A stretch of 64,000 nt of DNA from Minisyncoccota bacterium (GCA_041658485.1 JBBAAE010000001.1:11889-75888), one strand, 5' to 3'. Counted from the stretch's first letter, positions 340-58,626 are shown. Program-made: numbers and translations. The notes: generated from the letters alone by a model not told the origin.

Positions 340-1878
340 TCACAAATCCGTTCCTGAGTACGAAAGATTTAAACTCTTATTGCAAAGCGGAAAATCCGGC
401 ACGATGTTTCCTGGAGCAAGTTCGCCAAAGAGCGGCCAATTGCAAAACGAAGGGTCACGAATGACGAGTCGGTCAATGCGACCTTTTGCATCAAGGCGCA
501 CAAAATCCATAATTCCACCACGCCAGCTCTCCGCGAATCCGTACGCATCTCCAGTGCCATGAGAAACGGAAGCCTGCACCTTGCCTTCGGGAATCTTCGT
601 GAGCGCAAGACGGATTAATCTGAATGATTCAGTGAGTTCACGCACACGCACATTGAAGCGTGCAAAAACGTCGCCTGCTTTTTCTATAACCACAGACACT
701 TCCATATCTGCATATGCTCCATAGGGCATGTCACGACGAAGATCTATATCGATTCCAGAGGCGCGTGCACCAATACCTTGCGCGCCATATGCGAGCGCTG
801 CCTCTTTACTTAACACGCCCGTCGTTTCAAAACGTTCCTTAAGACCGTCTTTTGCATAGGCAATCTTTAACACCTCTCCTATGTCATGCTCTATACGTTT
901 AATTGTTTCTAGAATCTTCACTTCATCGTCTGCGGTTATATCGTGCGCACCGCCAAGAGTAATTGCACCACGGAGGAATCGGTGTCCAACAAGGTCGGCA
1001 TTAAGACGACGCATTTCTTCCACCATACGAAAACCTTGTGCTGCCATAAACGTAAATCCTGTACCCATACCACCCATGTTGCCTATATCAAAGATGTGAG
1101 CACACACACGCTCTAGCTCACTCCATATAACTCGCAAATACTCCGCACGCAGAGACACTGTCACATTAGAGATTTTTTCAATAGCTTGCACGAATGCGAG
1201 CGTGTGACCAACTACCATGTCGCCCGATACACGTTCAACAAACGGCAGTGCCTCTTCAGGAGTTTTCCCTTCAACAAGTTTTAGAACACCCTTATGTTTG
1301 AAAAAGAGTTTACCCTCAAGCGTAATAATGCGCTCCCCGCGTACGTTGAAACGAAAATGCCCTGGTTCAATGATACCTGCGTGAATTGGTCCTACTGGAA
1401 TCTCATACACCCCCTCACCTTCCACTTGGTGCATAGGGTACGGAACATTCGCATGAGCTAACTTTGTATTCCACTCAAAGTCTTTTCGCATAGGGTACGT
1501 GCCCTCAGGAATATTTTCATGATGCATGAGACGGCGTGGGTCAGGGTGTCCCACTGCCTCAATACCAAACTGATCCATAATTTGTCGCTCGTACCAGTTC
1601 GCTGCCATGATTGAGCGAGTCAAAGATGGATACTGTGGTTTTTCAGGTGAGAGATAGCTCTCAAGCGTAAGCAATTCTGTACCAACAGCAAAAACTGCAC
1701 GTATAGAAAACACATTACTTTTTTTACGCTCATCGAGTGCGTACATTAAAACCAAAGGCGATCCTTTCTCCACTATATCCTCTGCCGTAAGTGCAAAGTC
1801 CGACACTGGAACCTGCACTGTGCCAGAATCGCTCACATCTTCTAGACCTATTTCTTTTAAAAGTGTTTGGATATTCAT
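340..1878 (-). CDS. Fused NuoC-NuoD-like subunit / group-4 [NiFe]-hydrogenase large-subunit-like protein (HycE/HyfG-like) with incomplete Ni-ligand cysteines
   Basis: 512 aa. The N-terminal ~120 aa carry a NuoC signature (ERQIMDQFGIEAVGHPDPRRL). The rest is NuoD/large-subunit-like (GPIHAGIIEPGHFRF...GKLFFKHKG). The N-terminal RxCGxC position reads RVCAHI (one Cys only). The C-terminal DPCxxC position reads DPSFCN (one Cys only). Confidence 0.75.
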   Translation of the reverse strand: MNIQTLLKEIGLEDVSDSGTVQVPVSDFALTAEDIVEKGSPLVLMYALDERKKSNVFSIRAVFAVGTELLTLESYLSPEKPQYPSLTRSIMAANWYERQIMDQFGIEAVGHPDPRRLMHHENIPEGTYPMRKDFEWNTKLAHANVPYPMHQVEGEGVYEIPVGPIHAGIIEPGHFRFNVRGERIITLEGKLFFKHKGVLKLVEGKTPEEALPFVERVSGDMVVGHTLAFVQAIEKISNVTVSLRAEYLRVIWSELERVCAHIFDIGNMGGMGTGFTFMAAQGFRMVEEMRRLNADLVGHRFLRGAITLGGAHDITADDEVKILETIKRIEHDIGEVLKIAYAKDGLKERFETTGVLSKEAALAYGAQGIGARASGIDIDLRRDMPYGAYADMEVSVVIEKAGDVFARFNVRVRELTESFRLIRLALTKIPEGKVQASVSHGTGDAYGFAESWRGGIMDFVRLDAKGRIDRLVIRDPSFCNWPLFGELAPGNIVPDFPLCNKSLNLSYSGTDL

Positions 1879-1885
1879 ATGTATT

Positions 1886-3358
1886 TTATGAAATGGCCGT
1901 GATTATACGTTCAAGGATTGGCGATGCCATAGGTGTCATAAGAAACACACTAAATGCGACCAACAAAATAAGGTGAAGGGCTATAGCGGTATGCGACCAT
2001 CCCCATTTTTCACCCACCGTAACTTCACTCTTTGGTGAAACAGGTGCGGACGAAAAAAGAAACGGAATGATGAGGCGTATGAATCCTGCAAAAATAATAG
2101 CGAGTGCAAGAAGTACTATTGTTGCAAATATCGGATGTAGTACAACGCTTTGCGATATCAGAAGTAGTTCACTTCCAAAAAGTGGCGATGGTGGAATAGC
2201 GAGGAGCATCAAAATCAAGGTAAGAAACAGTGCCCCCGTGTACGGTAGTGTACGCATGACCTGCCCTACTCGATCAAACTTCGTACTCTTGAAACGAAGC
2301 AATATATTGCCTGCGCCAAAAAACAACGCGGACTTTGCGAGTGCATGTCCAACAATATGAATGACTGATGCAACAGCACCCACAGTCCCGAGTCCAGCAG
2401 AAAATACGATGAGTCCCATGTGCTCAATCGAAGAATACGCAAGGAGACGCTTATAGTCTGCCTGGAGCAAAATGAACGCCGCAGGAATAATGCATGAAAG
2501 CATGCCGAAAACCAAGAAGAGCTCACTCGTCCAAACACTTGAAGCAAGTGAACCGTCTACTAACACCCGAAAGCGCAATATTCCAAACAACGCAGCATTG
2601 AGAAGAATACCTGAGAGCATGCCTGAAATCGGTGAGGGAGCCCTACTGTGCGCATCGGGTAGCCATGCATGCATTGGCACCAAACCCACCTTCGTTCCAT
2701 ACCCAATAAGAATGAACACAAACGCTATTTGCATCAAGTGTGGTGGAAGCGAAGGAGCGACAGTAAGCAAATTCGTCCAACTGATTGCTCCGAGTCCATG
2801 CAAAAGACCAGAAGATGACGCTGCGTAGTAGGTGAGGAATAATCCAATGAGTCCAAGCGAAATTCCTGTTGAGCAAAGAATGAGATATTTCCATGCTGCT
2901 TCAAGTGAGCCTTTATGAGCATAGAACGCAACGAGGAGTGTTGTAGTCAGTGTTGTTGCTTCAAGCGCAATCCACATAAAACCAAGATTGTTTGAAACAA
3001 TAGTGAGAAGCATTGAGCACACAAAGAGACCAACAAAAAAGAAGTAACGACGCACTGCGGGCAATGCTATCTCCCCTGTTCGCACTTCTTCTCCTAGGTA
3101 GTGAATACTCGTTATGGTTGCTGTCCATTGAATGAACCCAATGAGAAGCACCATGAGTGCTGCAAATGTATCAAGATACCAGTACCCATTTTCAAATGAC
3201 GGTGCGCCAAAAAATAGCGGGATGGCAGTATAGAGACTTAACGCAAACACACCAGAACTTGCCAAAAATGCTGCGCCAAAAATAAACCGCAAACCACGCA
3301 TAAAAAATGGCACGGTGGCGAGAACTAAACATGAGACAAGTAGTAGTGAGATAGCCAT
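1886..3358 (-). CDS. NuoM/NuoN (Mrp antiporter)-like membrane subunit, HyfF/MbhH-like
   Basis: 490-aa polytopic membrane protein with the NuoL/M/N family motif WLPDAHSRAPSPISGMLSG. Confidence 0.7.
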   Translation of the reverse strand: MAISLLLVSCLVLATVPFFMRGLRFIFGAAFLASSGVFALSLYTAIPLFFGAPSFENGYWYLDTFAALMVLLIGFIQWTATITSIHYLGEEVRTGEIALPAVRRYFFFVGLFVCSMLLTIVSNNLGFMWIALEATTLTTTLLVAFYAHKGSLEAAWKYLILCSTGISLGLIGLFLTYYAASSSGLLHGLGAISWTNLLTVAPSLPPHLMQIAFVFILIGYGTKVGLVPMHAWLPDAHSRAPSPISGMLSGILLNAALFGILRFRVLVDGSLASSVWTSELFLVFGMLSCIIPAAFILLQADYKRLLAYSSIEHMGLIVFSAGLGTVGAVASVIHIVGHALAKSALFFGAGNILLRFKSTKFDRVGQVMRTLPYTGALFLTLILMLLAIPPSPLFGSELLLISQSVVLHPIFATIVLLALAIIFAGFIRLIIPFLFSSAPVSPKSEVTVGEKWGWSHTAIALHLILLVAFSVFLMTPMASPILERIITAIS

Positions 3359-3363
3359 AAAAA

Positions 3364-4011
3364 TTAATCAGTTAAGGTTCGCAAATCATCAGTCGCCACC
3401 GACGCATTCTCATCTTGCGCACGGTGCGTGAACACAGTGATAAGAATAAAAAATGCTAAGAGGTCAAAAAACGATCCAATTTCAAAAAGAAACGGCATGC
3501 CGTGCGTGAGCGCCAACCCGAATGTGAAGATGCCATTCTCCATAACAAAGAATCCAATTCCTTCCCCAAACATATCTTTTCGCGAAACCAACATAAGAAG
3601 GCCGACGAGCACAATGCCAAATGATGCAGCGAGCACAAAGTAATCAGCACCAACGGGCAATAACCCACGTGCTCCGATCAGAGCAACAATAGCCAGACAC
3701 GCCGCAACGAAAGAAAGTGTTGCGGGACGTGCATATGATTGCAGGCGCTCAGATGCTCCACTCACACGCGCCGCACGAAGCAAAAACGAAGGAATAAACC
3801 AAACTTTAATAAGAACAATAAGACCTGCAACAATAAAAAGTTGGAATTCCCCCGTTACAAATGCTGCAGCAATAGCGAGGAGTGCAAGAAGCGCTGACTG
3901 TACTCGAAATGCAGTTACCAAAGACCCCAAGCGCATGCGACTACTCATAAGAAACGCTAGGAAAAACATTCCTCCAGCAAACACTGTCATGGCAGTTGCG
4001 ATTGGTGTCAT
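3364..4011 (-). CDS. Small polytopic membrane subunit, HyfE-like (hydrogenase-4 component E-like)
   Basis: 215 aa, about six hydrophobic helices, sits between the NuoH-like and NuoN-like genes as hyfE does in hyf operons. Assigned by size and context only. Confidence 0.4.
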   Translation of the reverse strand: MTPIATAMTVFAGGMFFLAFLMSSRMRLGSLVTAFRVQSALLALLAIAAAFVTGEFQLFIVAGLIVLIKVWFIPSFLLRAARVSGASERLQSYARPATLSFVAACLAIVALIGARGLLPVGADYFVLAASFGIVLVGLLMLVSRKDMFGEGIGFFVMENGIFTFGLALTHGMPFLFEIGSFFDLLAFFILITVFTHRAQDENASVATDDLRTLTD

Positions 4012-4012
4012 A

Positions 4013-4993
4013 TTAGTGATAGAGGACGATTAACTCAACGGCAAGTCCGAGGAGCGCAATAAAGAATGCGAGCATCATATACTCCTGCATCCGATAAAAA
4101 CGCATCTTCACAATCACTGATTCTATAAAAGCAATTGCAAAAGCCCCGAGTGCAAGTTTTCCGAAAAATGCAATTAGTGCGACCCCAAGCCCAAAGAATG
4201 TAACCGGTGGAGCACTAATCCCAAATGGAATGAGGATACCCATACACACCGCCAAGAGCGCGGTTAACTTTATTGCTGATGCATACTCGAGCATTGCAAG
4301 ATATGTTCCTGAATACTCTAAGATCATAGCTTCGTGCACCATGGTGAGCTCAAGATGTGTCGCGGGATTATCTACTGGGTAGCGTGCATTTTCGGCAAGC
4401 AACACAAATAAAAATCCAATGAGCGTGACGATGACAGGAGGAACAGCGACCAACCACGGCAGTGATGTGAAGTGTCCAATAATGCCTCCCATGCCCCATG
4501 CGCCCGTAGCAAGTGCAAGGGTTGCAAGCGATACATAGAATGCTGGCTCAACGAGAGCAGCGAGCGTCATCTCACGGCTCGAACCCATGTTGCCAAACGT
4601 ACTTCCCGTATCCATACCTCCAAGCACCAAAAATACTGAACCAAGCGCCACTACTGCACCAAAAAGAAAAATATTATCGAGCGAACTTGGCACAATTCCA
4701 AAAAAGAGTGAGGGTACGACGAGAGCAAGGAAGAATGCACTTCCCAAGACCACAAATGGAACTACGCGAAATACCCATGAACTATGTTTTGTAATCGTCA
4801 TCTCTTTTCGGAGGAGCGAAAGCATTGAGACATAGGGCAAAAATATCGATGGTCCTTGGCGATTTTGAAAACGAGCTTTCAACGTGCGAACCATTCCCAC
4901 GACTAACGGTGCGGAAAGAAGTACCACGAGAGCTTGAAATGTAATAAGAAGGTACGTCATAGAGTAGTAGCGAGAGTGAGCACCAGTGCGCAA
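4013..4993 (-). CDS. NuoH/HycD-family membrane subunit
   Basis: KARFQNRQGPSIFLPYVSMLSLLRKE matches the NuoH/HycD signature (Q.R.GP....G.lQ..aD..KLl.KE). Polytopic. The true start is probably the internal Met (MTYLLITF), since the ORF overlaps the upstream gene by 37 nt. Confidence 0.7.
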   Translation of the reverse strand: MRTGAHSRYYSMTYLLITFQALVVLLSAPLVVGMVRTLKARFQNRQGPSIFLPYVSMLSLLRKEMTITKHSSWVFRVVPFVVLGSAFFLALVVPSLFFGIVPSSLDNIFLFGAVVALGSVFLVLGGMDTGSTFGNMGSSREMTLAALVEPAFYVSLATLALATGAWGMGGIIGHFTSLPWLVAVPPVIVTLIGFLFVLLAENARYPVDNPATHLELTMVHEAMILEYSGTYLAMLEYASAIKLTALLAVCMGILIPFGISAPPVTFFGLGVALIAFFGKLALGAFAIAFIESVIVKMRFYRMQEYMMLAFFIALLGLAVELIVLYH

Positions 4994-6963
4994 ATAACTA
5001 GAAGGAGGTACAACTGAATAACGCCATTCTGGAGTTTTTTAACCGCATGTGAAACAGCAAAGACCGCAATACCAATCGGGCGATAGAGCCAATACTCAAA
5101 AAAGGATTGAATGCTCCACACAAGACGCCGACGCACAATCCAGGGATTACTCATTGAAATAGGCTCAATGATTAATTCTTTCTCCGACATGAGAATTGAT
5201 TTGAAGAAAAATCTAATCGGCGCTGAAAAACCAGTTGCAGTGTACTGCATCCGAGGAGTTATAGGTTGCCCACAATCCCACGTATCCGTGATGCGGGCAG
5301 GATTTCTGTTAGAAAGAAATCGACGAAATACCATGAGAAGCACCCCAATAGAGAGAACACTCAAAAGCACCCACCATGCGTTCATAGAAGCTCCACCTAA
5401 AACTGCAACATCTCCAAAAAGTGTCATACCTTCCGTGAAGGCATTCGGCGCACTGAGGATCGGGAACAAAAACAATCCTGCAGTGATTGAAAGAAGTACG
5501 GAAGATAGTGGCGGAAGCCAAAGCAGTATCGGCATTGGGGACACCTGCTCTGCGTGGGTCGTGCGTGCTCGTCCAAGAAAGATTGCACTAAACATGCGGA
5601 CATATGCAAAAAGCGCGAGCCCGCCAACCAAAGCAAGGAGAGCGAGTATCAGTGCAAAACTTCCTCCAAAAAGAGCGGAAACAGTCATACCGCTTGCAAG
5701 CGTCTGAAAATATGTCCACTCACCAAAAAAGGTACCGAATGGGGGCAACGCAGCAGCTGCAAGAGAAAGTGCAAGAAATATTCCTGCAAAAATTGGCCAA
5801 CGCTGTGCAAGACCCCCTAGCTCGTCGAGATTTCGTGTATGTGTTTTTGATGCCACAGCACCAACTGCCATGAATAGCCCTGTCTTGAAAATAAAATGGT
5901 TCACGGTATGAAGAATTATGAAAAGAGCAATGGATGGTGCAATTGCGGAAACAGCACTATCTGGAGATCCGTGTACAAGGAGGTATATTCCAACAGCAGA
6001 AAAGATGAGCCCCATATTTTCTATACTGCTCCATGCAAGGACGCGCTTTGCGTCATTCTCAACTGCAGCGCGAAGCGCACCAAAAAATGCTGAGAGAAGG
6101 CCAATACCAATAACGAGGAATGCTGAGAAAGACGGAACAAATGGGAATAGTGCTACTCCTTGAATGAAACCAAAGAGTGCCACTTTAAGCATGACACCAG
6201 AGAGAAGCGCGGAGCTTCCACTTGGTGCTTGTGGGTGCGCATAGGGCAACCACTGATGAAGTGGCACTAAACCTGCTTTCGAACCAAACCCCGCGAAGAG
6301 AAGCACAAATGCAACAGAGATGGCGAGTGGTGTGGCACTAAGAGCAGAGAGTGCAACATCATGCCACGACGCAAAAAGATTACCTCCTGCAAGAAGAAGA
6401 AGCCCTGCTGCAATACAAGCAAACCCAATGTGAGTCATCACAAAGTAGAGCCATCCTGCACGGAGTGACTCATCACTCCTATCTGCGATAACCAAGAAAT
6501 ATGCGGAGACTGACATAATTTCCCAAGCCATCAGGAAAGTAAAAAGCGATGGGGAAAGGATCGTTGCTTGCATCCCTACAATAAAAAATGCCGAGGCAAC
6601 ATTGAGCGTTGGCAACACGTACACATCCTTATATGGTGGCAAGCTCTGAATCGCATAGAGCGAGGTTAGAAGGACGCCTCCGTACACCAGCATAAGGAAA
6701 AACACCTGCATTGAGTTAAGTGCAATGTTCACCAACCCAAAGAACGTAGCATTGAAAGACGCACTATTCCCTATTCCTAAAAGAGCAAAAAAATAACTGC
6801 CAGCAATCAGGCCAGCAAAACCCGACAAAATAAATATCGATTGCACCAGCGTGTTGTTCCAAGAAAAACGGCGGGTCAGAAGAGAAAGAACTACCCCTAC
6901 AAGTGGGAGCACGAATGCTACAGCAAAAAGACAGTCGATAGTGAAGGAGGACATAAGGTGCAT
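4957..6963 (-). CDS. NuoL/HyfB-like large antiporter-type membrane subunit
   Basis: 668 aa (E. coli HyfB is 672), polytopic, with the NuoL-family motif WLPYAHPQAPSGSSALLSG. Confidence 0.75.
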   Translation of the reverse strand: MHLMSSFTIDCLFAVAFVLPLVGVVLSLLTRRFSWNNTLVQSIFILSGFAGLIAGSYFFALLGIGNSASFNATFFGLVNIALNSMQVFFLMLVYGGVLLTSLYAIQSLPPYKDVYVLPTLNVASAFFIVGMQATILSPSLFTFLMAWEIMSVSAYFLVIADRSDESLRAGWLYFVMTHIGFACIAAGLLLLAGGNLFASWHDVALSALSATPLAISVAFVLLFAGFGSKAGLVPLHQWLPYAHPQAPSGSSALLSGVMLKVALFGFIQGVALFPFVPSFSAFLVIGIGLLSAFFGALRAAVENDAKRVLAWSSIENMGLIFSAVGIYLLVHGSPDSAVSAIAPSIALFIILHTVNHFIFKTGLFMAVGAVASKTHTRNLDELGGLAQRWPIFAGIFLALSLAAAALPPFGTFFGEWTYFQTLASGMTVSALFGGSFALILALLALVGGLALFAYVRMFSAIFLGRARTTHAEQVSPMPILLWLPPLSSVLLSITAGLFLFPILSAPNAFTEGMTLFGDVAVLGGASMNAWWVLLSVLSIGVLLMVFRRFLSNRNPARITDTWDCGQPITPRMQYTATGFSAPIRFFFKSILMSEKELIIEPISMSNPWIVRRRLVWSIQSFFEYWLYRPIGIAVFAVSHAVKKLQNGVIQLYLLLVICALVLTLATTL

Positions 6964-7481
6964 TACTTGCGGGTAGTGGTAACTATACTCAAGAGCCCTC
7001 TTAAGACATCCTCTGGTGTTGGCGGATCACCGGGAATTCGAGCATCAACTGGAATAACATTTTCTACTGCCCCCACTCCCGCATAGGAATCCTTCCAAAT
7101 TCCGCCCGTGCATGCTCCGTCACCGAGAGCAATAACAATTTTTGGCTCTGGCGTCATCTCGTAGGCGGTCTTCAGTGCATGCTCCATGTTGCGAGTAACA
7201 GGACCTGAAACAGTGATTACGTCAGCATGACGGGGAGATGCCACAAATGAGATTCCGAAACGCTCAATGTCGTACAAGGCGTTACCCAGAGCAGTTAGTT
7301 CATACTCTTCACCGTTCGTGGAACCCGCATCAACATGCCGTATGCGTAGCGTTCGACCTCCATATAAAGTATGAATAGCCCTCTTCAGATTCTCACCGAT
7401 CTCCTCAACGTGAGTTGGAATTTGAGGACATTTTTCAGTTCTCTTCCCTGTGGTAATTATTTTAGAAAGAAGACGCAACAT
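6963..7481 (-). CDS. NuoB / hydrogenase small-subunit-like protein with degenerate Fe-S ligands
   Basis: 172 aa with NuoB/HycG-like blocks. GSTNGEEYEL replaces GSCNGC..E (both Cys lost). IPGDPP replaces the conserved IPGCPP (Cys to Asp). Only ALGDGACTGG keeps one Cys, so 1 of 4 canonical cluster ligands remains. Confidence 0.75.
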   Translation of the reverse strand: MLRLLSKIITTGKRTEKCPQIPTHVEEIGENLKRAIHTLYGGRTLRIRHVDAGSTNGEEYELTALGNALYDIERFGISFVASPRHADVITVSGPVTRNMEHALKTAYEMTPEPKIVIALGDGACTGGIWKDSYAGVGAVENVIPVDARIPGDPPTPEDVLRGLLSIVTTTRK

Positions 7482-7669
7482 ATTGTGGAAATGTGGCTTA
7501 CTATATTCCTCTTCACTTTAGATGTCCAGAAAGCAACAGAGTAAATAGTGAACCCATCTAGCTCATTGTTTCTTAAAATAAACCACCACACTGTTGTAAA
7601 AATTTCTTGCTTCTTACCATAAAGAGGCGTATAACTTTACAAAATAATCTAACAGAAATATTTACAAAT

Positions 7670-8434
7670 ATGGCTAGGCACGAAGGGGGTCCACGAGACC
7701 CTATGAATTTTGAAGAGGCGGAAGAATATGTTCGTCGAAATGGTGAGGTACTACCCATACCCAAACTACTTGGACCAGATCACATACACTGCATAGATAG
7801 CCGGCGAACAAAAAAAGGAATTGGATACCCGGGAGGCATGCTGGGACTTACCACGACCCTCTTTTCAGGGGTACATGCGGATGCGCACGAGCATGTTGGC
7901 GGATTCAAGGGGTTTGCTCAATTTCTTGAAGGATTATTTGGTGGAATGAGTGCTCACACCGACGATGAACATGAACATGATCCTTCTGGGTGTAGAGGGT
8001 GTGGACACATGCAATCTCTTATGAATAATCACGGTGCATACGGATTCGGATCAGAACACGCTGAGGAAGTCCACTCATATTCAAAAGGCCTGAAAACTCG
8101 GTGGAGAGAAGGTACTCCTGGTTTCAGTATTTTTCAGTACGGAGGAAAAGCAAACCCACGTGCAGTTATGCATGTAGACGACCCACGGGATGGGCACTAT
8201 ATATCTCTCCCCCCTAACGATGGAACGAATCAGGTATTTGTTCACAATAGAGGTGCCAATCACAGCATATTAGGCGATGCGGTGCATTTTATTTTGGGCG
8301 GACTTGGTGACGTATTTAAAAGCCACCCAAGAGATATCTATGATGACCATATTGCGTTAACGATAGATAAACTAGCTTCCGATTTACCCCATTTCACAGT
8401 AGGACATGACGGGAATAAAATTACAGTTAACTAA
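7670..8434 (+). CDS. Hypothetical His-rich protein, possible metal-binding
   Basis: The track ORF runs 7607-8434; the likely start is the Met at about 7670 (MARHEGGPRDP...). It contains HADAHEHVGG, HTDDEHEHDPSGCRGCGHM and HAHVH-like clusters. No recognisable family. Divergent from the Ehr-like operon. Confidence 0.5.
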   Translation: MARHEGGPRDPMNFEEAEEYVRRNGEVLPIPKLLGPDHIHCIDSRRTKKGIGYPGGMLGLTTTLFSGVHADAHEHVGGFKGFAQFLEGLFGGMSAHTDDEHEHDPSGCRGCGHMQSLMNNHGAYGFGSEHAEEVHSYSKGLKTRWREGTPGFSIFQYGGKANPRAVMHVDDPRDGHYISLPPNDGTNQVFVHNRGANHSILGDAVHFILGGLGDVFKSHPRDIYDDHIALTIDKLASDLPHFTVGHDGNKITVN

Positions 8435-12740: not shown

Positions 12741-12851
12741 GCTTTAGTGGCTAGGGTTTAGCGTTTAGGGGAGAACGAATTGAAAAATCCTGATCCCTAC
12801 GAATCCGACGAAGCATCGTCTAAACCCTGACCACTAAACGCTAGCCCCTAG
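12741..12851. repeat. Pair of inverted G-triplet repeat units (GGGTTTAGCGTTTAGGG family) flanking a 47-nt spacer
   Basis: Left unit ctttagtggctagggtttagcgtttagggg (12741-12770); right unit ctaaaccctgaccactaaacgctagcccctagc (12819-12851). Lies between the TraD-like stop and the ndk start. Confidence 0.6.
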
Positions 12852-15733
12852 CTCTTCTGGTTCTCTCGCATCTGATTATACTTCTGGTGAATATCAGCCT
12901 CCACAGCTTCGCGGGCTCGACCGTAGCGTTGATACGAAATCTGTTTCAATGCATCAATGTTCAAGAAGTCGCCAGGGGTAAACGGGATAGTCTCAATAGT
13001 AAAACCAGGGGTAGGCTTTCCTCCAGCAAGGAGCTTTAAATATGAATGGAAGTTGTCAATTTTTAGGAAGTCGGAAACCTCAAAGTTTGGAAATTGTTTC
13101 GCAATATACTCAGCATCATCGGGACCTACACGAAACACTGCCATCGTACCAACGTTACCAAAGACCGCTTCTTTAATTTTTGGAAGGAGCTGAGAAACAT
13201 ACTGGTGCGCCATAGTCATAGAGAGACGGAATTTTCGTGCTTCTGAGAGAATTGTTGAAATAGTATCGGTCGTGATGTTCTGGAACTCGTCAATGTAGAG
13301 ATAGAAGTTTGGAGGATTCAAATGCAAATACTCAGTACGTGCAAGTGCAGTCATCATTATCTTTCCAACAATCACAAGTCCAATCAAGTTTGCATTTACG
13401 TCCCCCAGTCGGCCTTTGGACAAGTTCACAAGAAGAATCTTCTTGTTGTCCATAATATCCTTGAAATTAAAGGCCGATCGTTGCTGACCTATGATGGGGC
13501 GCATAATTTCATTTGCGATGAAGATATCGAATTTTGAGGTGATGTACGGAACCACGTTACGCAAATCTCCTTCTCCCCGCACATTTTCTGCAATGTCTTC
13601 CCAGAAGTGCGTTACCACGGGATTTTTACAGCGCGACAATTTCAATGCGCGGAACTCATCGTCAGCGAGTACTCGCGAAATATCCATGAGTGTCGAGCCA
13701 GTATCAGGATCTTCCAAAACAAGCATCGTGGCATTACGAAAATACTGCTCGAAAATAGGGCCGAACGCTTCTGGTACATCACCATATAATTTCTTGAAAA
13801 TCTTAAACATCTCGTCCACCACGAATGTTTTTTGTTCAGGGAAGCGTGGATCATACTCAAGCATATTGAGCCCCATTGGCCTTGCGGTATATGCAGGATC
13901 AAAATAAATGAGGTCGTCAATGCGATCTTTAGGAATACGGGAAAGAATCTCCAATACATCCACACCGTGTGGGTCAATAAAACACACCCCTTCCCCATTC
14001 TCAATGTCCTGAATAATCATATTCTTCAGGAAGTTCGTCTTACCAGTACCCGTTTGTCCAATGGTATACATGTGGCGCAGGCGATCATCTGGAGTGAAAT
14101 GAATTGGCGTTGCAATATTTGAGTAACGATTAATGCCGATGACAATGCCTTTCTCAGGAAGCCCTGGTGGTGCAGGAGCAAGCTTAGCGCTTGCAGTTTT
14201 GGCTTCACGAGATGCTGTACCTCCTGCAATAGTGAGATGAAAAATAGTTGAGAGCTCTGCCAAATTCATCGGCATGAGTGGAATCTTATGCATCAAAGGT
14301 GTTGGCGCAGCCTTGCGTGTCCATTCAAGCCACAGCTGATAGAAAAATCCTTCGTGTGCTTGACGGTCAAACATACGGAAAATGAACAAGCGGAGAAACT
14401 CCCGCAACTCCTTTCTACCTTTTATATGCTTAAAACGAAGGCGATTCGCTTTTGCATCTTCATACTGCCCAAAGGTATTTTCAAGTTCCGTCAAAATTGC
14501 CATTGCCCTCTCTTTGGTGCGAGCAGAGGCAACAATGCGTAAATTCACTCCCACAATGACACTCTTGAGCTTTTTTGACACTGCGTCAGCCGCAAAAGAA
14601 TCAATATTCTTACTATCATCCTTCTTTTTTTCTTCAGAGCTTTCCAAAAAACTAGTGAAGCCTTTGTTCAATCCCTGAAAAAATCGACGCATTGGTGAGT
14701 AATGCTCCATGTACATATTTTTTCGAAATATGTCATTCGCAGAACCCTTACCTTTATTAAGTTCGTCTAAAACATAGCGGATACGCTTAGAGTGATAGTC
14801 TCCTGCTGGTGCAACGGTAATTTGAAGCGCAGCCCCTTCACCTTCTTTAGTGATTTTTGAAAGTGCTGCGAGCGTCACATTCATAGGGTCGTGACTAAAC
14901 TCTTCTGATGTCTTTAAAGGAATTGGTGGCGGGCGCTGATAGTAAGCAGACGCTGCAACAGTCACACCAAATTGGTTAAAAAGATTGTAGTCATCTTTTT
15001 TTTCAACAATACGTGCGCGAGGAAACATGGCAAAAATCTGCTTTTCAAACGTTTCCCGTTTTGCTCGAGGAACTGACAAATAAAAGACCGCTTCCTCTTT
15101 AGTGTGCGAAACAGCAATTTCCATTGTGAAATGCTGAAGATGAATCTTTTTGCGCTTGTGCCAATCCTTCAGGAAAATTGTATCGGGGAGAGCAACAAAA
15201 GGAATCATGCTCAAATAAAACTGCTCCATCTGCATGCAAACATCCTTAAGAGACCCCCCTGGTTTCCCTGGCGCAGCTTCAGGTACGGCTATATCCAAGA
15301 GAACAAAATCAAGAGCTACAGCGAGTGGGTCATTAGCACTCAGCCCTGGGATTGGATGACCAGCTGTCCGGTATTGCACAAGCAGGCGATGGAAATCATC
15401 TTCAAGGTGGGGATTATCAATGCGATCGAGCTCCCTCATGACAGCCTTGAATCCTTGGGTATGCAAAATACCCAACAACTCCTCCATGTCTTTGTCGTTC
15501 GAGTCAGGTGTAAGTTCAAGAATGATGCCTTGCTTCTGCTCTTGCTCTACCCCCTCTGGTGCCTCCGAAAGTGTAGGGAGAACAGACGCTTCGACAGGTA
15601 AGGCCGGATCCCCTCGATGTCCCCTTCCCCCTCCACCCGAACGCGCGGTCTCACGCAACTTCGTCAGTTGATGCTCAGGCGAAAGTTTCGCTGCTTTTGT
15701 ATCAATTCCTTTATTAGGATTAAATCCTGGCAT
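12848..15733 (-). CDS. TraD/VirD4/TrwB-like (FtsK-HerA superfamily) P-loop ATPase with a large N-terminal domain of unknown function
   Basis: 961 aa. Walker A YTIGQTGTGKTNFLKNM, Walker B LYIDEFQNI, then ARKFRLSMTMAHQYVSQL typical of type IV secretion coupling / DNA-translocation ATPases. The N-terminal ~500 aa have no recognisable similarity and no N-terminal transmembrane helices. Confidence 0.6.
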   Translation of the reverse strand: MPGFNPNKGIDTKAAKLSPEHQLTKLRETARSGGGGRGHRGDPALPVEASVLPTLSEAPEGVEQEQKQGIILELTPDSNDKDMEELLGILHTQGFKAVMRELDRIDNPHLEDDFHRLLVQYRTAGHPIPGLSANDPLAVALDFVLLDIAVPEAAPGKPGGSLKDVCMQMEQFYLSMIPFVALPDTIFLKDWHKRKKIHLQHFTMEIAVSHTKEEAVFYLSVPRAKRETFEKQIFAMFPRARIVEKKDDYNLFNQFGVTVAASAYYQRPPPIPLKTSEEFSHDPMNVTLAALSKITKEGEGAALQITVAPAGDYHSKRIRYVLDELNKGKGSANDIFRKNMYMEHYSPMRRFFQGLNKGFTSFLESSEEKKKDDSKNIDSFAADAVSKKLKSVIVGVNLRIVASARTKERAMAILTELENTFGQYEDAKANRLRFKHIKGRKELREFLRLFIFRMFDRQAHEGFFYQLWLEWTRKAAPTPLMHKIPLMPMNLAELSTIFHLTIAGGTASREAKTASAKLAPAPPGLPEKGIVIGINRYSNIATPIHFTPDDRLRHMYTIGQTGTGKTNFLKNMIIQDIENGEGVCFIDPHGVDVLEILSRIPKDRIDDLIYFDPAYTARPMGLNMLEYDPRFPEQKTFVVDEMFKIFKKLYGDVPEAFGPIFEQYFRNATMLVLEDPDTGSTLMDISRVLADDEFRALKLSRCKNPVVTHFWEDIAENVRGEGDLRNVVPYITSKFDIFIANEIMRPIIGQQRSAFNFKDIMDNKKILLVNLSKGRLGDVNANLIGLVIVGKIMMTALARTEYLHLNPPNFYLYIDEFQNITTDTISTILSEARKFRLSMTMAHQYVSQLLPKIKEAVFGNVGTMAVFRVGPDDAEYIAKQFPNFEVSDFLKIDNFHSYLKLLAGGKPTPGFTIETIPFTPGDFLNIDALKQISYQRYGRAREAVEADIHQKYNQMRENQKS

Positions 15734-47385: not shown

Positions 47386-47961
47386 ATGTACACTGCAAAA
47401 AAATTCACCTTCGGAAACTTGGATGGTATTTCACCCAAGCAACTTGAAGTACACATCAAACTCTACGAAGGGTATGTAAAATTCCTGAACACTCTTGAGG
47501 AAACTGTTGCGGATCTAAAAAAAGACTCTGAAAAAAATGCCTACGCCCTCGCTGAAGTTACGCGTCGCATCGGCTTTGAATGGAATGGTATGCGCATGCA
47601 TGAACACTACTTCGCACAGTGGGAAGGAACACCTTCTCCTATTGAAGGAGCACTTAGAGATGCACTGGCAGCGCAATACGGCAGTTACGAAAAATGGGAG
47701 AACGAATTCAAAGCAGTCGGAATGATGCGTGGCATTGGTTGGGCAATACTTTCATACGATGCCACAACTAAGAATTTTCTTACTCACTTCGTTGCCGACC
47801 ACGAACTAGGACAACTCAACGACACAAAAACAATCCTTGCTCTCGACATGTGGGAACACGCCTATATGGTGGATTACATTCCTGCAGACAAAAAACAATA
47901 TATAGAAGCGTTTTTTAAGAATTTGAATGGTGCTTCGATCCAAGTGCGATTTCCTTCCTGA
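47386..47961 (+). CDS. Fe/Mn-type superoxide dismutase family protein (divergent)
   Basis: C-terminal DMWEHAYMVDY (Asp and His ligands), WNGMRMHEHYF, N-terminal EVHIKLYEGYV. Several second-sphere His residues are substituted. Confidence 0.7.
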   Translation: MYTAKKFTFGNLDGISPKQLEVHIKLYEGYVKFLNTLEETVADLKKDSEKNAYALAEVTRRIGFEWNGMRMHEHYFAQWEGTPSPIEGALRDALAAQYGSYEKWENEFKAVGMMRGIGWAILSYDATTKNFLTHFVADHELGQLNDTKTILALDMWEHAYMVDYIPADKKQYIEAFFKNLNGASIQVRFPS

Positions 47962-49324
47962 ACCGGAACACCAACAAGCCTACAGTTGCATACAAAAACC
48001 CGAGCACCATTAAAAGTGGCCACATCCACTCTCGTGGAATAGGGAGCGATGCAAACGGCAATGAGCCGAAAAATGTTGCTATAGAAATAATATAGGAAAG
48101 AATTCCATAGCCGAGAATACTTAAGGGGAAAGCGAATATCGGCGAGAGAAGTGCAGTAATCGATGCGAAAAATCCAACAAACATTGCAATCGGAACTGCA
48201 GGAAGAACCAAAACATTAGCGGGCAAAAAAACTAATGACACCGCTCCGATAGAAAATATAAGAAGTGGTAACACGGTCACTTGTGTTGCCAGAGTCGTCG
48301 ACACAATTTCCCGAAACGGGAAATATTTAAAGTCAGGAATGAACTTCAAACGACTCGCGATTGTTTCAGAGAAAAGTATAAGTCCGAGCGTTGCAAGAAT
48401 GGAGAGTTGGAATGAAAGGTCATAGAGAACGATGTACGGATTCCACAAAGCCATCACCGCCGCCGCAATTGCGAGCATGCGGAGTGCTACTTTTGGTCGA
48501 TGCAACACAGTAGCAACCATCATTAAGAGCGCCATGATGAGGGCTCTGATTGTAGTCTCGGAGCCACCGGTCATGATCGCAAAGCCAATAACAAAAAGTG
48601 CAGAGAAGCCGTATGCAACAGTTCGTGGAAATATTTTTAAAAATATAAATAAAATCCATTGAATAACCAGCGCGACATTGTATCCAGAGAGAACAATAAT
48701 ATGTATCACACCGGCACTTCGAAAGAATCCTGTTATTTTTTCACCTAACGATTGTTTTTCACCAAGAAGCAAGCCAGCAAGAAGTGCAGATTGAGGTTCT
48801 GGCACTGCGCGCTCAATTCCTTTAATAAATAAATGTTTAACAGATAGAAGCCCTGCAACAATTACATTTCCCTCCCCAGTTCTGAGTTTCGTAACCTGCG
48901 GGAATGAAATTGTGTAGAAAATACTATGCGCACGAAGATACTTTGGATAATTAAATGTCCGTCCTGAGTCAGTTTCAAATGGTTCAGGCTTTTTAAGTTT
49001 TCCTTTTACACTAACGCGATCCCCATAGACGGCCGTCTCAAACGAATCCGCAAAGAGAAGTACTCTCACTTTTTCTGCAACAGAAACACCATTCAACTTT
49101 TCCACTTTCACAACAAGATGTGTGGTGCGTTCACGCTGGTCGGGGTCTCTCACCACTACACCCTCGACAACGACACTAGTATCAACTGAATCTTCAAAAA
49201 TCGAAGGAAATTTTTCAGGCACAAGGACTGAATACGCCCCTGCACCAATAACAACCGCGATACAAAGTAGCGGTACGAAATTTCGAATTAAAAAGTCCCT
49301 TAAAAATTCTGTATGATATATCAT
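47915..49324 (-). CDS. comEC: ComEC/Rec2 DNA-uptake channel protein (N-terminal DUF4131 plus competence domain only)
   Basis: 469 aa. N-terminal transmembrane and OB-like region, then a polytopic domain with LLAGLLLGEKQSLGEKITGFFRSAGVIHIIVLSGYNVALV. It lacks the MBL domain, which is encoded separately at 46465-47301. Confidence 0.75.
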   Translation of the reverse strand: MIYHTEFLRDFLIRNFVPLLCIAVVIGAGAYSVLVPEKFPSIFEDSVDTSVVVEGVVVRDPDQRERTTHLVVKVEKLNGVSVAEKVRVLLFADSFETAVYGDRVSVKGKLKKPEPFETDSGRTFNYPKYLRAHSIFYTISFPQVTKLRTGEGNVIVAGLLSVKHLFIKGIERAVPEPQSALLAGLLLGEKQSLGEKITGFFRSAGVIHIIVLSGYNVALVIQWILFIFLKIFPRTVAYGFSALFVIGFAIMTGGSETTIRALIMALLMMVATVLHRPKVALRMLAIAAAVMALWNPYIVLYDLSFQLSILATLGLILFSETIASRLKFIPDFKYFPFREIVSTTLATQVTVLPLLIFSIGAVSLVFLPANVLVLPAVPIAMFVGFFASITALLSPIFAFPLSILGYGILSYIISIATFFGSLPFASLPIPREWMWPLLMVLGFLYATVGLLVFRFRKEIALGSKHHSNS

Positions 49325-52681: not shown

Positions 52682-53092
52682 ATGAACGATGATCTTTTCT
52701 TGAAAATTGCACGGCGAGAAATACCAGCAGAAATAGTCTACGAGGATGAAAAAACACTCGCGTTTTTAGACATCCGACCCAACAATCATGGACATACGCT
52801 CGTCATTCCTAAAGAACGGTACAGAAATATCTTAGACATACCAGAAGACCTCTGGCTCGCGGTAATGAAAACGGTACACTTACTCGCGCCAGTTATAAAA
52901 AAAGCGGTTGGAGCCGACGGCATTAACATTGCGATGAATAACGAACCCGCCGCACACCAGCTCGTCTTTCATGCACATGTGCACATCATTCCTCGCTTTG
53001 AGGGCGACCAGCACCAGCCATGGACTGGCACTCCTTATAAAGAAGGTGAAGCAAAAATGATCGCAGAAAAAATACGGGGTTCTTTGAGTTAA
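52682..53092 (+). CDS. HIT-family (histidine triad) nucleotide hydrolase
   Basis: HAHVHIIPR histidine triad, 136 aa. Confidence 0.85.
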   Translation: MNDDLFLKIARREIPAEIVYEDEKTLAFLDIRPNNHGHTLVIPKERYRNILDIPEDLWLAVMKTVHLLAPVIKKAVGADGINIAMNNEPAAHQLVFHAHVHIIPRFEGDQHQPWTGTPYKEGEAKMIAEKIRGSLS

Positions 53093-54207
53093 GTTTTTTT
53101 CTCAAGTGCATCTATCCCCGGCAACGTGCCATTTGCAAGAAAATCAAGCATCGCGCCACCTGCCGTTGAAACGAATGTAAATTTATCCATGAGTCCGAGA
53201 TTTTGAATCGAGGAGAGTGTGTCTCCCCCACCAACAATAGATTTTGCAGATGAGCTCGCAATAGCGATAGCAAGCGCATCGGTTCCTGCAGTGAATCCCT
53301 TTTCAAAATTTCCCATCGGTCCATTCCAAAGTATTGAGCGTGACGCAGTAATGATAGATTGAAGCGCTTGAATAGAAGCTGGGGCAATATCTAAAATAGC
53401 TTCGTCATGCCCAACTTCGCTCGCAAGAATATCTCGTCGCCCCTGTGGCCCTTCAACCGTGACAAACTCGGGGAGAATTATTTTTGGATTGCCGAGCATC
53501 GTGCCTGCGGTCGAAGCTCCTGACACCAGAGATACTCCCACTTCGTACCCTTTCGCTTTGAAAAAATCATTGGCAATAGCCCCGCCAACAAACACGGAGT
53601 CATATTTTTTAAGTAACGTCTCTATTAATGCAACCTTCGTGGTAAGTTTTGCACCACCAACTATTGCAAGCGATGGACTGATCGGTGTAAGTGCAGGAGT
53701 GAGGCCTCTAACTTCATCAAGAAATTGAAATCCTGCGTACGAAGGCAAAATATCGGGTATGCCAACAATGGATGCATGCGCGCGGTGGGATGCAGGAAAT
53801 GCATCATTTACATATATGTCAGCGAGCGACGCGAGCTCATGAGCAAAATGTGCATCATTTTTCTTTTCGTCTTCGCTCATGCGAATGTTTTGTAAGAGGA
53901 CCACTTCCCCATCCTGAATTGCCATCACAGCCTGATGCGCCTCTACTCCTGCTATGTCATTAACGAATGTAAGTGGTATTTTTTTCTTAAGATATTCATA
54001 CACTGGAACCAGCGATCCCCTACTGTCACTCAAATGACTCACGAGAATTACGCGTGCCTCTAAAGCAACGAGAAATTGAATAGATTTCAATGCTCTATCA
54101 ATACGAAATGGGTCAGTAATCGCACTGTTCACTATCGGAGCATTCAAATCCAAACGCAATAAGACACGCTTGCCTTTTATATCTTTCAGTTCATTAATTG
54201 AGCGCAT
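53089..54207 (-). CDS. pgk: Phosphoglycerate kinase
   Basis: MRSINELKDIKGKRVLLRLDLNAPI... with full PGK layout. The start is trimmed to the internal Met; the track ORF extends to 54396. Confidence 0.9.
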   Translation of the reverse strand: MRSINELKDIKGKRVLLRLDLNAPIVNSAITDPFRIDRALKSIQFLVALEARVILVSHLSDSRGSLVPVYEYLKKKIPLTFVNDIAGVEAHQAVMAIQDGEVVLLQNIRMSEDEKKNDAHFAHELASLADIYVNDAFPASHRAHASIVGIPDILPSYAGFQFLDEVRGLTPALTPISPSLAIVGGAKLTTKVALIETLLKKYDSVFVGGAIANDFFKAKGYEVGVSLVSGASTAGTMLGNPKIILPEFVTVEGPQGRRDILASEVGHDEAILDIAPASIQALQSIITASRSILWNGPMGNFEKGFTAGTDALAIAIASSSAKSIVGGGDTLSSIQNLGLMDKFTFVSTAGGAMLDFLANGTLPGIDALEKKT

Positions 54208-54217
54208 GAGGTGCTGG

Positions 54218-54970
54218 CTACTTTTGAAATGCGCGGATAATATTTGTAAATTCTTCAGCATTAACACTTGCACGCCCAGCAAGAAGTCCCTGTATACCAG
54301 GAGTCGTTGCAAACAATGCGGCACTTTCTGTATTGACCGACCCCCCATAGATGATGCGCACCTTAAGCGCGCGCTCTCGTCCCCACAGGTCGGCAATGGT
54401 TTTTCTGATGAACATTATTGCTTCTGCAACAACACGAGACGATGGAGCCTCCGTGGCGCCAATCGCCCAGAGAGGATCATACGCTATCGTAAATTTCGAA
54501 GCGTCTACTGCATTAATGCGTGCGAGCGAAGAGATTACATTGTTACTCAGGTAAGTTAGGTACGCACCTTCAGAGTCACGAGACGGTTCGCCAACACACA
54601 CAATGGGGTGCAATTTTGCCTTAATTGCCGTGACTGCTTTTTTTGCAACAACATCATCAGTATCTCCCTCTCGACGTCGCTCAGCATGCCCAATAATCAC
54701 ATATTTGATTCCTGACGAGACGAGAGCCTTCGGGGAGGTTTGCCCGGTATGCGCTCCGTCTTCTTCAAAAAATACATCTTGCGTACCAAAAGCTATTCGC
54801 TTTCCTCCGTAGCTACTTTTCAAAAGTGATGCGAGCGACACCTGAGGACAAAGAACCACTTCTACCTTCAATCCACGAGGCAACTTCTTATCAATGTCAC
54901 GGATGAGCTTTTTCCCTTCAGCGGGAGTGTTTATATAGAGTTTCCAATTTCCTACAATGAGTTTCTTCAT
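54218..54970 (-). CDS. tpiA: Triosephosphate isomerase
   Basis: MKKLIVGNWKLYIN, IIGHAERR, AYDPLWAIGAT, GGSVN. Confidence 0.9.
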   Translation of the reverse strand: MKKLIVGNWKLYINTPAEGKKLIRDIDKKLPRGLKVEVVLCPQVSLASLLKSSYGGKRIAFGTQDVFFEEDGAHTGQTSPKALVSSGIKYVIIGHAERRREGDTDDVVAKKAVTAIKAKLHPIVCVGEPSRDSEGAYLTYLSNNVISSLARINAVDASKFTIAYDPLWAIGATEAPSSRVVAEAIMFIRKTIADLWGRERALKVRIIYGGSVNTESAALFATTPGIQGLLAGRASVNAEEFTNIIRAFQK

Positions 54971-55064: not shown

Positions 55065-56246
55065 CTAGTCCTGCGTACGCCAATCAATAATACGAAATCC
55101 ACTTCCTGTTGCAGGGGTAAATGGTGGCGGTAGTTGCGCTAAAAGTGCATCGTGGACATCTGTCCGAGTACTATAGCCCGAGATAAATGCACCAGACGAT
55201 GTCCATTTTGTTTCAACGGTACTAGGCGATGCAAATGTACCGAAAGTATTTAGTGTGGAACGAAGTACATATGATTGCAGGTCAGTAGGAACAGCATGCG
55301 TACCCGAGGCATCATACCGATGTCGCCCAAAGTGGCCAGTGCTTGCGACAAAAACACCATTCATCTGTAACACATCGGGTGATTGGAGTGAAATCAACAC
55401 TGATCGCTCAGCAATTGCGGTTAACCCATCGTCATATGCGTGCGCATAGGTAATGTTTCCCGTGATAACAATGTCGGGATTAATGCTCGTGCTCGCTACA
55501 TTTGCCCCAGCAAACGTAACCTTTCCAGATACGATCCCCTCAAGCCAAACAGAATCTTCTACAAACACAACAGGACACCCTGATGGTATGGCGTAATTTG
55601 TGGTGGCGCCAATTGAAGCAATTATTGTGTTTTCTTCCTCCCAACCTTCATCATCTGAATATCCCATTATCTCAGTAACTGCGGTAACAGGACTTGCATC
55701 GAATGTTCCGTTCGACTTGAAAACAATTTTATAACCATACGCATCCACAGGCGATGGATCAATATATACACCAGACGCTTGCGCATATGTTTTTAAGTTT
55801 GTGAGGGTGGCCGTAACAACTGCGGAATCAGTCTTTGCTGGACTCGTTGATGCCGCAAGTGTCGGTGTTCCATACTGAGCAATAAGTGTTTTTGTGTGTG
55901 ATGCATTTTCCAGTGCCCATCCCGTTGAACGCACTGATGCGGATGTAAGTACTCCGCAAGAAGTTATACCTGAAATAGCGAGAGAAAAATTCCCGACAGT
56001 AGCTCCGCTTTCCGGATCAAGAATTGCATGTACATATGGCCCAGACAAACCCGTGCCGTCTTGTACATCAGTAGGAAACTCTGAGAAGTGCCACCGATAG
56101 TACTCAAGCCCTGCTTCAGAAATACTTAGTGCTTTGTCGGCCTCAGATCCAAAACGCTCTTTAGTTCTCTCGAGTGTCAACGCACTCATAAAATCAGAGA
56201 GAAGAAAAAAGAAAACAGCGGAAGCAATAAGTACAAAAACAGTCAT
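55065..56246 (-). CDS. Hypothetical secreted / membrane-anchored protein encoded with the pilus genes
   Basis: The track ORF extends to 56315, but its first 23 codons coincide with an intergenic repeat unit. The likely start is the internal Met (MTVFVLIASAVFFFLL..., an N-terminal transmembrane anchor). About 390 aa, Thr/Ser/Gly-rich, no family recognised. Confidence 0.45.
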   Translation of the reverse strand: MTVFVLIASAVFFFLLSDFMSALTLERTKERFGSEADKALSISEAGLEYYRWHFSEFPTDVQDGTGLSGPYVHAILDPESGATVGNFSLAISGITSCGVLTSASVRSTGWALENASHTKTLIAQYGTPTLAASTSPAKTDSAVVTATLTNLKTYAQASGVYIDPSPVDAYGYKIVFKSNGTFDASPVTAVTEIMGYSDDEGWEEENTIIASIGATTNYAIPSGCPVVFVEDSVWLEGIVSGKVTFAGANVASTSINPDIVITGNITYAHAYDDGLTAIAERSVLISLQSPDVLQMNGVFVASTGHFGRHRYDASGTHAVPTDLQSYVLRSTLNTFGTFASPSTVETKWTSSGAFISGYSTRTDVHDALLAQLPPPFTPATGSGFRIIDWRTQD

Positions 56247-56270
56247 AAACCCCCGTGCACTTCTTATGCT

Positions 56271-56306
56271 CCCCCCTAAACTCTCCCCCCTAAACGCTAA
56301 ACCCTG
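56271..56306. repeat. G-triplet family repeat unit (CCCCCCTAAACTCTCCCCCCTAAACGCTAAACCCTG)
   Basis: Spacer between the prepilin gene stop and the 55065 gene. Confidence 0.5.
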
Positions 56307-56311
56307 TTCAT

Positions 56312-58562: not shown

Positions 58563-58626
58563 TTTTTCAGTATAACGTCAAAAAATAATTCCTAGCGTGC
58601 TAATTGGTACACCATGTGTACCTAAG

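Follow-up and report, generated by a model that had tools for sequence, protein, structure and literature searches.

Loss of redox cofactor ligands in a Parcubacteria-type Ehr operon and its possible coupling to carbonic anhydrases

What does a membrane complex with the architecture of complex I do once the ligands of its redox cofactors have gone? This question is raised by a six-gene operon at positions 340-7481 of a 64,000-nucleotide stretch of DNA from a Minisyncoccota bacterium (GCA_041658485.1 JBBAAE010000001.1:11889-75888), which as a whole is called the window below. Complexes of this kind are named energy-converting hydrogenase-related (Ehr), and their function has been unresolved since the naming in 2013. 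A puzzle, too, is the energy metabolism of the candidate phyla radiation (CPR), with its ATP synthase and no respiratory chain. The clade to which the operon belongs is the cleanest natural experiment in this respect, a complex I architecture without any redox cofactor that is yet strongly conserved. We conclude that the operon very probably encodes a Parcubacteria-type Ehr complex that has lost its redox function. The full proposal developed here, namely a redox-free, ion-translocating Ehr complex that is coupled to CO2/HCO3- by a partner carbonic anhydrase (CA), is put forward tentatively, with a chance that we place not far short of even. The operon had been described before from its DNA alone (below, the sequence-only reading).

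Cofactor ligands of the large and small subunits

The six genes share the minus strand (Table 1) and encode, in this order, a NuoB-like small subunit, an antiporter-type HyfB-like subunit, HycD/NuoH-like and HyfE-like membrane subunits, a second antiporter-type subunit (HyfF-like) and a fused NuoC-NuoD large subunit. The sequence-only reading had given the same list and order, and Pfam and NCBIfam agree with it. Group 4 [NiFe] hydrogenases carry four Cys in the large subunit (RxCGxCxxxH and DPCxxC), a proximal [4Fe-4S] cluster and a ferredoxin-like subunit with two further [4Fe-4S] clusters. In the operon, the Ni-binding Cys, the Fe-S Cys of the small subunit and the ferredoxin-like subunit are all missing. 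HMMER alignment with E. coli HycE places RVCGICGFAHS opposite ERVSGDMVVGHT (window residues 215-226) and SLDPCYSCTD opposite SLNLSYSGTD (window residues 502-511), and the first motif of the window protein reads ERVSGDMVVGH. The four Ni-ligand positions, aligned with HycE and MbhL, are occupied by S218, M221, S506 and G509; none is a Cys, and the same holds for all orthologues, one of which has a single Cys in the whole protein. The small subunit gives a similar picture. GSTNGEEYEL faces GSCNGCDIEI of MbhJ and PGDPP faces PGCPP, and the Fe-S ligand columns hold T55, E58, G122 and D152 (0/4 Cys). Its Cys124 lies outside the ligand column, at a position that is C, I, A or V across the family, and seven orthologous small subunits contain no Cys at all. 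A ferredoxin-like subunit of the HycF/NuoI type was found neither in the operon of the window nor in those of the 24 genome loci retrieved. Judged by these alignments, the complex has no recognisable site for any redox cofactor. Since Ni and Fe-S ligands as well as a ferredoxin-like subunit are missing, redox chemistry by the known route is not available to it.

It is barely conceivable that the operon encodes a working group 4 [NiFe] hydrogenase whose ligands had merely been misplaced in a manual alignment. Such an error did occur in the sequence-only reading, which took RVCAHI (257-262) and DPSFCN (475-480) for the large-subunit motifs and counted two of four Ni-ligand Cys. Both stretches face non-ligand parts of HycE (ERLHSHL and RAATYANWP), their Cys vary within the family, and the true count is zero. 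The corrected alignments with HycE, MbhL, MbhJ and HycG leave fewer Cys, not more, and together with the Cys counts of the orthologues they refute a working hydrogenase. For the small subunit the placement of GSTNGEEYEL and IPGDPP was right, and the "at most one of four" Cys allowed there becomes none. The ligand loss claimed earlier thus stands in a stronger form, and the call of an Ehr-like, redox-inactive membrane module is supported by eight ligand positions without Cys and no ferredoxin-like subunit.

The differences from the closest known complexes follow the same line. By sequence, the large subunit and the HyfB/HycC, HycD, HyfE and HyfF counterparts match E. coli Hyf/Hyc (PDB 7Z0S) best, and HycE/HyfG is a fused NuoC-NuoD large subunit as in the window. 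The window operon, however, lacks the [NiFe] and Fe-S sites, the ferredoxin subunit (HycB/HycF/HyfA/HyfH) and the formate dehydrogenase (FDH) partner. Compared with respiratory complex I (Nuo/Nqo), the ligands of cluster N2 are absent, and NuoE, F, G and I were found neither in the operon nor in its flanks.

Placement among Ehr complexes and order of loss

Ehr is the name for complexes of such architecture without Ni ligands (Marreiros et al., 2013, as cited in later papers). The operon agrees with this description, with NuoB-, NuoC/D- and NuoH-like as well as antiporter-like subunits and a large subunit without Ni/Fe-binding residues. A monophyletic, CPR-specific Ehr clade without the metal-binding Cys has been described, which "likely cannot interact with H2" (Jaffe et al., 2020, PMC7304191). 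It has the same subunit set as the window and a large subunit that likewise lacks the Ni/Fe-binding Cys. That study discusses the large subunit only, and not the small and membrane subunits of the complex (Jaffe et al., 2020). We found no report in the literature of a final loss of the small-subunit Fe-S cluster in Ehr. Ehr complexes as a kind and their CPR clade are already published (Jaffe et al., 2020), whereas the stepwise Fe-S loss and the CA/ATP synthase neighbourhood are new; among the single findings, the complete loss of the small-subunit cluster, the near-invariance of motifs and ion residues and the CA neighbourhood appear to be new.

A search of metagenomes with the small subunit as query provided 80 further loci (L028-L107; all loci are cited by such numbers) among at least 600 matches. 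Among the metagenomic Ehr operons, two gene orders occur that are circular permutations of each other, here called "small-last" and "small-first". The small-last order is HyfB-HycD-HyfE-HyfF-large-small, as in L037:3097-10513, and its large subunit is already Ni-less; the motifs RVSGD and NKS.NLSYSG.D are common to the window and 33 small-last large subunits from non-CPR Ehr loci. These shared motifs, like the assignment of CPR sequences to Ehr (Jaffe et al., 2020), agree with a place of the window operon in the Ehr clade beside group 4f. The small-last small subunits keep GSCNGCELEI, GDCG and PGCPP, with all four [4Fe-4S] Cys in 51 of 53; the four columns are those named above, and the third ligand corresponds to G122 of the window. 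In contrast, the window clade has the permuted order with the small subunit first and no Fe-S Cys. Among small-first operons, L070 and L074 keep the Cys and L035, L038 and L052 have one (GSTNACEQE), while the remaining metagenome loci and all 24 genome loci have no ligand Cys in the small subunit. This series of Cys retention, four in small-last and four to zero in small-first operons, argues for a stepwise loss, in which the NiFe site would have gone first, followed by gene permutation and then by the last Fe-S cluster, with the window as the probable end state. As a separate observation, L095:1-11642 carries two tandem Ehr operons, and the second HyfB starts 47 bp past the small subunit of the first.

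The ligands kept in small-last operons indicate that ancestral Ehr was probably redox-active. Together with FDH-Ehr partnerships proposed in the literature for Margulisbacteria and Saganbacteria, this is what would speak for a cryptic redox enzyme in the window, working through a separate oxidoreductase such as an FDH or through a non-canonical cofactor held by Asp, Glu, His or Met. We regard such an enzyme as improbable, given that the clade has no Fe-S ligands, that seven small subunits lack Cys altogether, that no ferredoxin-like subunit is encoded in the operon and that no dehydrogenase, FDH or NuoEF-like genes were found in the flanks. An FDH-Ehr arrangement is rejected for this clade on the missing Fe-S ligands and the lack of FDH or NuoEF genes nearby.

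Conservation and the ion-translocating arm

A hydrogenase that has lost every catalytic ligand could also be a decaying remnant without function, but this is scarcely credible and effectively refuted by the conservation data. Identical gene order and intact open reading frames (ORFs) were present in 24/24 genome loci. Homologues of the large subunit fall into more than 100 clusters (54-96% identity), almost all of them belonging to Patescibacteria (Paceibacterota, Kaiserbacteria, Uhrbacteria, Nomurabacteria). Ratios of non-synonymous to synonymous substitution (dN/dS) are 0.04-0.12 for all six genes in comparisons with L003 and L004, values that are approximate as dS is saturated (>1.2). The motifs that replaced the ligands are near-invariant themselves, ER[VI]SGDM.VGH and SLNLSYSG[TN]D in the large subunit and GSTNGEE.E, GDGA.TGG and PGDPP in the small one. 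The presence of such new polar and acidic motifs in the old cofactor pockets suggests that the cytoplasmic cap is functional and not vestigial.

Conservation extends to the residues that carry ions in antiporter-type subunits. In the HyfF-like protein E133, K223, H338/K342 and E397 are invariant in all 25 sequences, and the HyfB-like counterparts E148, K229, H356/K360 and E415 are kept in 23-25 of 25; in both subunits these are the Glu of transmembrane helix (TM) 5, the Lys of TM7, the His/Lys of TM8 and the Glu of TM12. In the NuoH-type loop between TM5 and TM6, AENARYPVDNPATHLELTMVHEAM.LEYSG (residues 200-229), 26 of 30 positions are invariant in 23/23 sequences. These patterns point to strong purifying selection on the ion-translocating arm and the coupling loop. 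With the conserved network of charged residues, such selection makes it most likely that ion translocation was kept, and the complex probably continues to transport H+ or Na+ through the membrane. The suggestion in the sequence-only reading of "perhaps" an ion-translocating scaffold gains support from the invariant Glu, Lys and His.

Invariant antiporter-type residues in a complex without cofactor ligands would also be expected of a stand-alone cation/proton antiporter similar to Mrp, with the NuoBCD-like cap as a structural or gating lid, with no chemistry coupled to the ion flow, and with CA and ATP synthase neighbours that simply serve the same pH and ion homeostasis. Mrp (Mnh/Pha) is related to the membrane arm of complex I, works without redox chemistry and contains two antiporter-like subunits; it was also among the PDB matches (6z16, 7qru). 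However, Mrp, a set of seven subunits (MrpA-G), has no NuoH-like and no NuoB/C/D-like ones, and the operon has no MrpE, MrpF or MrpG. About 680 residues of cytoplasmic subunits were kept, and the near-invariant replacement motifs and the NuoH-type loop exceed what a passive lid needs. We consider an Mrp-like antiporter the main rival, though less likely than not, and return to it with the gene neighbourhood.

Carbonic anhydrases and other neighbours

The best functional lead is a CA-like gene next to the operon, which the sequence-only reading had missed. Its product, a protein of CDCA fold, has no Pfam or NCBIfam match. An AlphaFold2 prediction with a 70-sequence alignment was usable, whereas a run with five sequences gave a pLDDT of 62 and an unusable model. 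About 223 clusters at 50% identity make up its family. Its conserved site has the form CxDxR/HTD/CGH (C41-x-D43-x-R45, H96-T-D98, G110-C111-G-H113), and C41, D43, R45, H96, D98 and C111 each show full or at least 90% conservation among the 70 sequences, which may be compared with a Cys-His-Cys triad and an Asp/Arg dyad. The spacing from His to Cys is presumably longer than in CDCA1.

A CDCA-fold protein is the first neighbour of the operon in the window and in L001-L003, and a distant relative of its family or members of other CA families take this place in further loci (Table 1). The CA-like matches in the 104 loci are all first neighbours of Cys-less, small-first operons. Five solid, independent cases give a positional p of about 6e-4, conditional on lying within 5 kb; the genome-wide chance expectation of such an adjacency would be far lower still. 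Because CA genes adjoin Cys-less operons, a coupling of ion flow to CO2/HCO3- interconversion by the partner CA can be proposed from gene neighbourhood, as the most likely role, which we rate a little below an even chance. In this proposal the six-subunit, redox-free module would translocate H+ or Na+, and a partner CA (in the window the zeta-CA-like protein) would interconvert CO2 and HCO3- coupled to this ion flow. The role would be bicarbonate supply, pH and ion-gradient homeostasis, or both, alongside the F1Fo ATPase. Either a gradient made by the F1Fo ATPase would drive bicarbonate trapping, or a CO2/HCO3-/H+ disequilibrium would drive ion export. A more far-reaching version, in which a chemiosmotic CO2/HCO3- machine docks a lineage-specific zeta-, CsoSCA- or gamma-CA and either traps bicarbonate or feeds ATP synthesis from a disequilibrium of habitat or host, is quite unlikely.

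The module would thus be a counterpart, free of redox chemistry, to DAB (DabAB) and NDH-1MS/CupA. DAB2 has been described as a vectorial CA that is coupled to the proton motive force, with a beta-CA-like subunit on a complex I-type proton subunit. Cyanobacterial NDH-1MS/CupA is a CA-linked complex I-type parallel. In DAB/MpsAB and NDH-1MS/CupA, as here, complex I-type proton subunits (PF00361) are genetically linked to a CA-like protein, and the chemistry of DAB is non-redox like that proposed for the window module. The differences are considerable, since the module has no DabA or CupA homologue, the CAs next to it are zeta/CDCA-like, CsoSCA-like or of the gamma class, it is with six subunits and a NuoBCD-like cap far larger than DAB, and its CA link is drawn from gene neighbourhood alone. 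If the proposal holds, vectorial CO2 hydration on complex I-type proton channels would reach a third, independent architecture, and coupling machinery would outlive the chemistry for which it evolved. Should a disequilibrium feed ATP synthesis, organisms without a respiratory chain would have a non-redox, non-light form of energy conservation.

ATP synthase genes are also found near the operon. In L029:1537-9892 (+), 79 bp separate the end of a complete atpBEFHAGDC operon from the small-subunit gene that follows on the same strand, possibly as parts of an atp-ehr super-operon, and a gene of the ATP synthase alpha/beta family is likewise located upstream of the operon in L028, L030 and L035. 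Together, the CA and atp neighbourhood leads to a hypothesis on this family that is specific and testable, the first of its kind.

Several observations weigh against a coupling to CA. A CA-like neighbour is present in only about one third of the Cys-less loci, about two thirds have no CA within 10 kb, and most other loci are flanked by sigma-70/primase or unrelated genes. The CA-like gene of the window is transcribed divergently from the operon. Operon and CA-like gene are also separable, since L004, a close relative (83% identity), has the operon without a CA-like gene, and L026 has a CA-like homologue (46% identity) amid the same IF3, SmpB and FtsH genes without an Ehr operon. To our knowledge, few bicarbonate-requiring pathways are known in CPR bacteria. 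The regular expression for the CA motif was devised after the sequences had been inspected, and the neighbours in L007, L010 and L021, which share only the motif CxDx[RK]...Hx[DN]C and failed the profile tests, were not counted as CAs.

An Mrp-like antiporter would agree with the adjacent atp operon and with the many loci that have no CA neighbour. It would also agree with a six-gene "group 4f" complex of Methylocystis (ehfA-F), which was induced 16- to 23-fold (log2FC 4.2-4.5) at pH 5, while H2 was not detected (bioRxiv 10.1101/2025.08.29.672306). The motif AARVS reported for ehfA-F resembles the RVS motif of Ni-less Ehr, so that the complex may be an Ehr, and its induction at pH 5 fits a CA-coupled and an Mrp-like function alike. 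The point that such an antiporter hardly explains is the occurrence of three CA classes as first neighbours, which is difficult to understand without a direct link.

Beyond these genes the flanks hold sigma-70/primase, IF3-L35-L20, SmpB/FtsH, a PD-(D/E)XK nuclease, a DsbA-like protein and a degenerate P-loop-kinase-like gene, and no universally linked seventh gene was found in them. The profile of the window CA-like family (A2) matched only L001-L003 across the loci, and hhalign comparisons of A2 with the neighbours in L020, L007 and L021 were not significant. The family of the L007/L010 neighbours (alignment A5) was unsupported as CA by hhalign and a PDB profile search, and single-sequence PDB searches with the L007 and L009 neighbours were negative. 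E. coli Can, used as a probe for canonical beta-CAs, matched nothing in any flank, and no match to DabA (PF10070) was found.

Three kinds of neighbours were noted in addition. One or two SulP-family (PF00916) transporter genes lie directly upstream of HyfB and co-oriented with it in the small-last loci L031, L037, L044, L060 and L105; the SulP family includes bicarbonate carriers. In L037 and L105 a DUF2490 gene is found directly downstream of the Ehr operon. In seven loci a gene for 205-252 aa without Pfam or NCBIfam match is convergent with the large subunit, 51-83 bp downstream of it (Table 1), and by eye its product resembles a degenerate P-loop (thymidylate-kinase-like) protein.

Table 1. 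Features of the window and of related loci.
Feature	Locus	Position	Strand	Matches and remarks
NuoB/HycG/MbhJ-like small subunit, 172 aa	window	6963..7481	-	Pfam Oxidored_q6 1e-26; MbhJ 6cfw_J 6e-30; HycG 7z0s_G 4e-27
HyfB/HycC-like antiporter-type subunit, 668 aa	window	4957..6963	-	NCBIfam hydrogenase-4 subunit B 1.5e-120; HycC 7z0s_C 4e-40
HycD/NuoH-like membrane subunit	window	4013..4960	-	Pfam NADHdh 2e-32; HycD 7z0s_D 3e-31 (from query residue 15)
HyfE-like small membrane subunit, 215 aa	window	3364..4011	-	NCBIfam PRK11492 hydrogenase-4 membrane subunit 7e-13, under cut-off
HyfF/NuoM-N-like antiporter-type subunit, 490 aa	window	1886..3358	-	NCBIfam hydrogenase-4 subunit F 1e-111; MbhH 6cfw_H 8e-32
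Fused NuoC-NuoD/HycE-like large subunit, 512 aa	window	340..1878	-	Pfam Complex1_30kDa and Complex1_49kDa; HycE 7z0s_E 5e-58
Divergent intergenic region between operon and CA-like gene, 188 bp	window	7482..7669	.	contains the top promoter candidate of the operon
Zeta-class (CDCA-like) CA-fold protein, 254 aa	window	7670..8434	+	candidate partner, divergent from operon; alternative TTG start 7607
Distant relative of the window CA-like family	L009			upstream, co-oriented, 33 bp gap; hhalign E 5e-5, probability 68%
CsoSCA-like beta-CA	L020			upstream, co-oriented, 101 bp gap; 2fgy 1.5e-9; Zn-site motifs CxDGR and YHFS..H.GC aligned; Pfam cut-off passed
Homologue of the L020 CsoSCA-like protein	L028			directly downstream; 1e-48
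Cam/CcmM-type gamma-CA	L029			directly downstream, co-oriented; 3kwc 9e-37; 1thj 4e-31
Convergent gene	L005	11598-12284	-	
Convergent gene	L008	3848-4525	-	
Convergent gene	L011	11536-12294	-	
Convergent gene	L012	10382-11074	-	
Convergent gene	L013	11612-12229	-	
Convergent gene	L015	9987-10607	-	
Convergent gene	L019	11601-12284	-	
ComEC-like competence protein	window	47915-49324		
PGK	window	53089-54396		
Type IV pilus/type II secretion PilC- and PilB-like genes	window	57348-60363	-	

Within the operon, genes overlap by 1-4 nt or are separated by gaps of up to 7 nt, and this tight packing suggests translational coupling. The ORF of the HycD/NuoH-like subunit opens with TTG at 4993, and its likely start is the ATG at 4960, which overlaps the stop codon of HyfB in the sequence ATGA. 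Pfam families found on the operon proteins are Oxidored_q6, Proton_antipo_M (twice), NADHdh and Complex1_30kDa with Complex1_49kDa; the best NCBIfam matches are hydrogenase-4 subunits B and F, HyfE and NuoB/NuoD, all under the curated cut-offs. The best solved relatives are HycE, HycC and HycD of E. coli formate hydrogenlyase and MbhJ and MbhH of P. furiosus. The HyfE-like gene holds the same position in related loci. The top promoter candidate of the operon is TGGACA-17-TATAGT on the minus strand (7528-7500; 10/12 matches), a weak call, as the scan of the intergenic region for promoters and terminators returned no more sites than expected from shuffled sequence.

Of the window's ORFs a part was scanned with Pfam and NCBIfam, and among these no hyp or respiratory genes were found. 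Two ORFs on the minus strand, 12848-15733 (961 aa) and 55065-56315 (416 aa), had no Pfam match at E<=1e-5. The other scanned ORFs encode housekeeping proteins, ComEC, PilB/PilC, PGK, RecJ and NusA, a set that fits a Parcubacteria genome, and the set of ComEC, PilC/PilB, PGK and RecJ is typical of CPR genomes. The nearest relatives are metagenome-assembled genomes of Parcubacteria/Patescibacteria, in keeping with the metabolically minimal organism suspected earlier.

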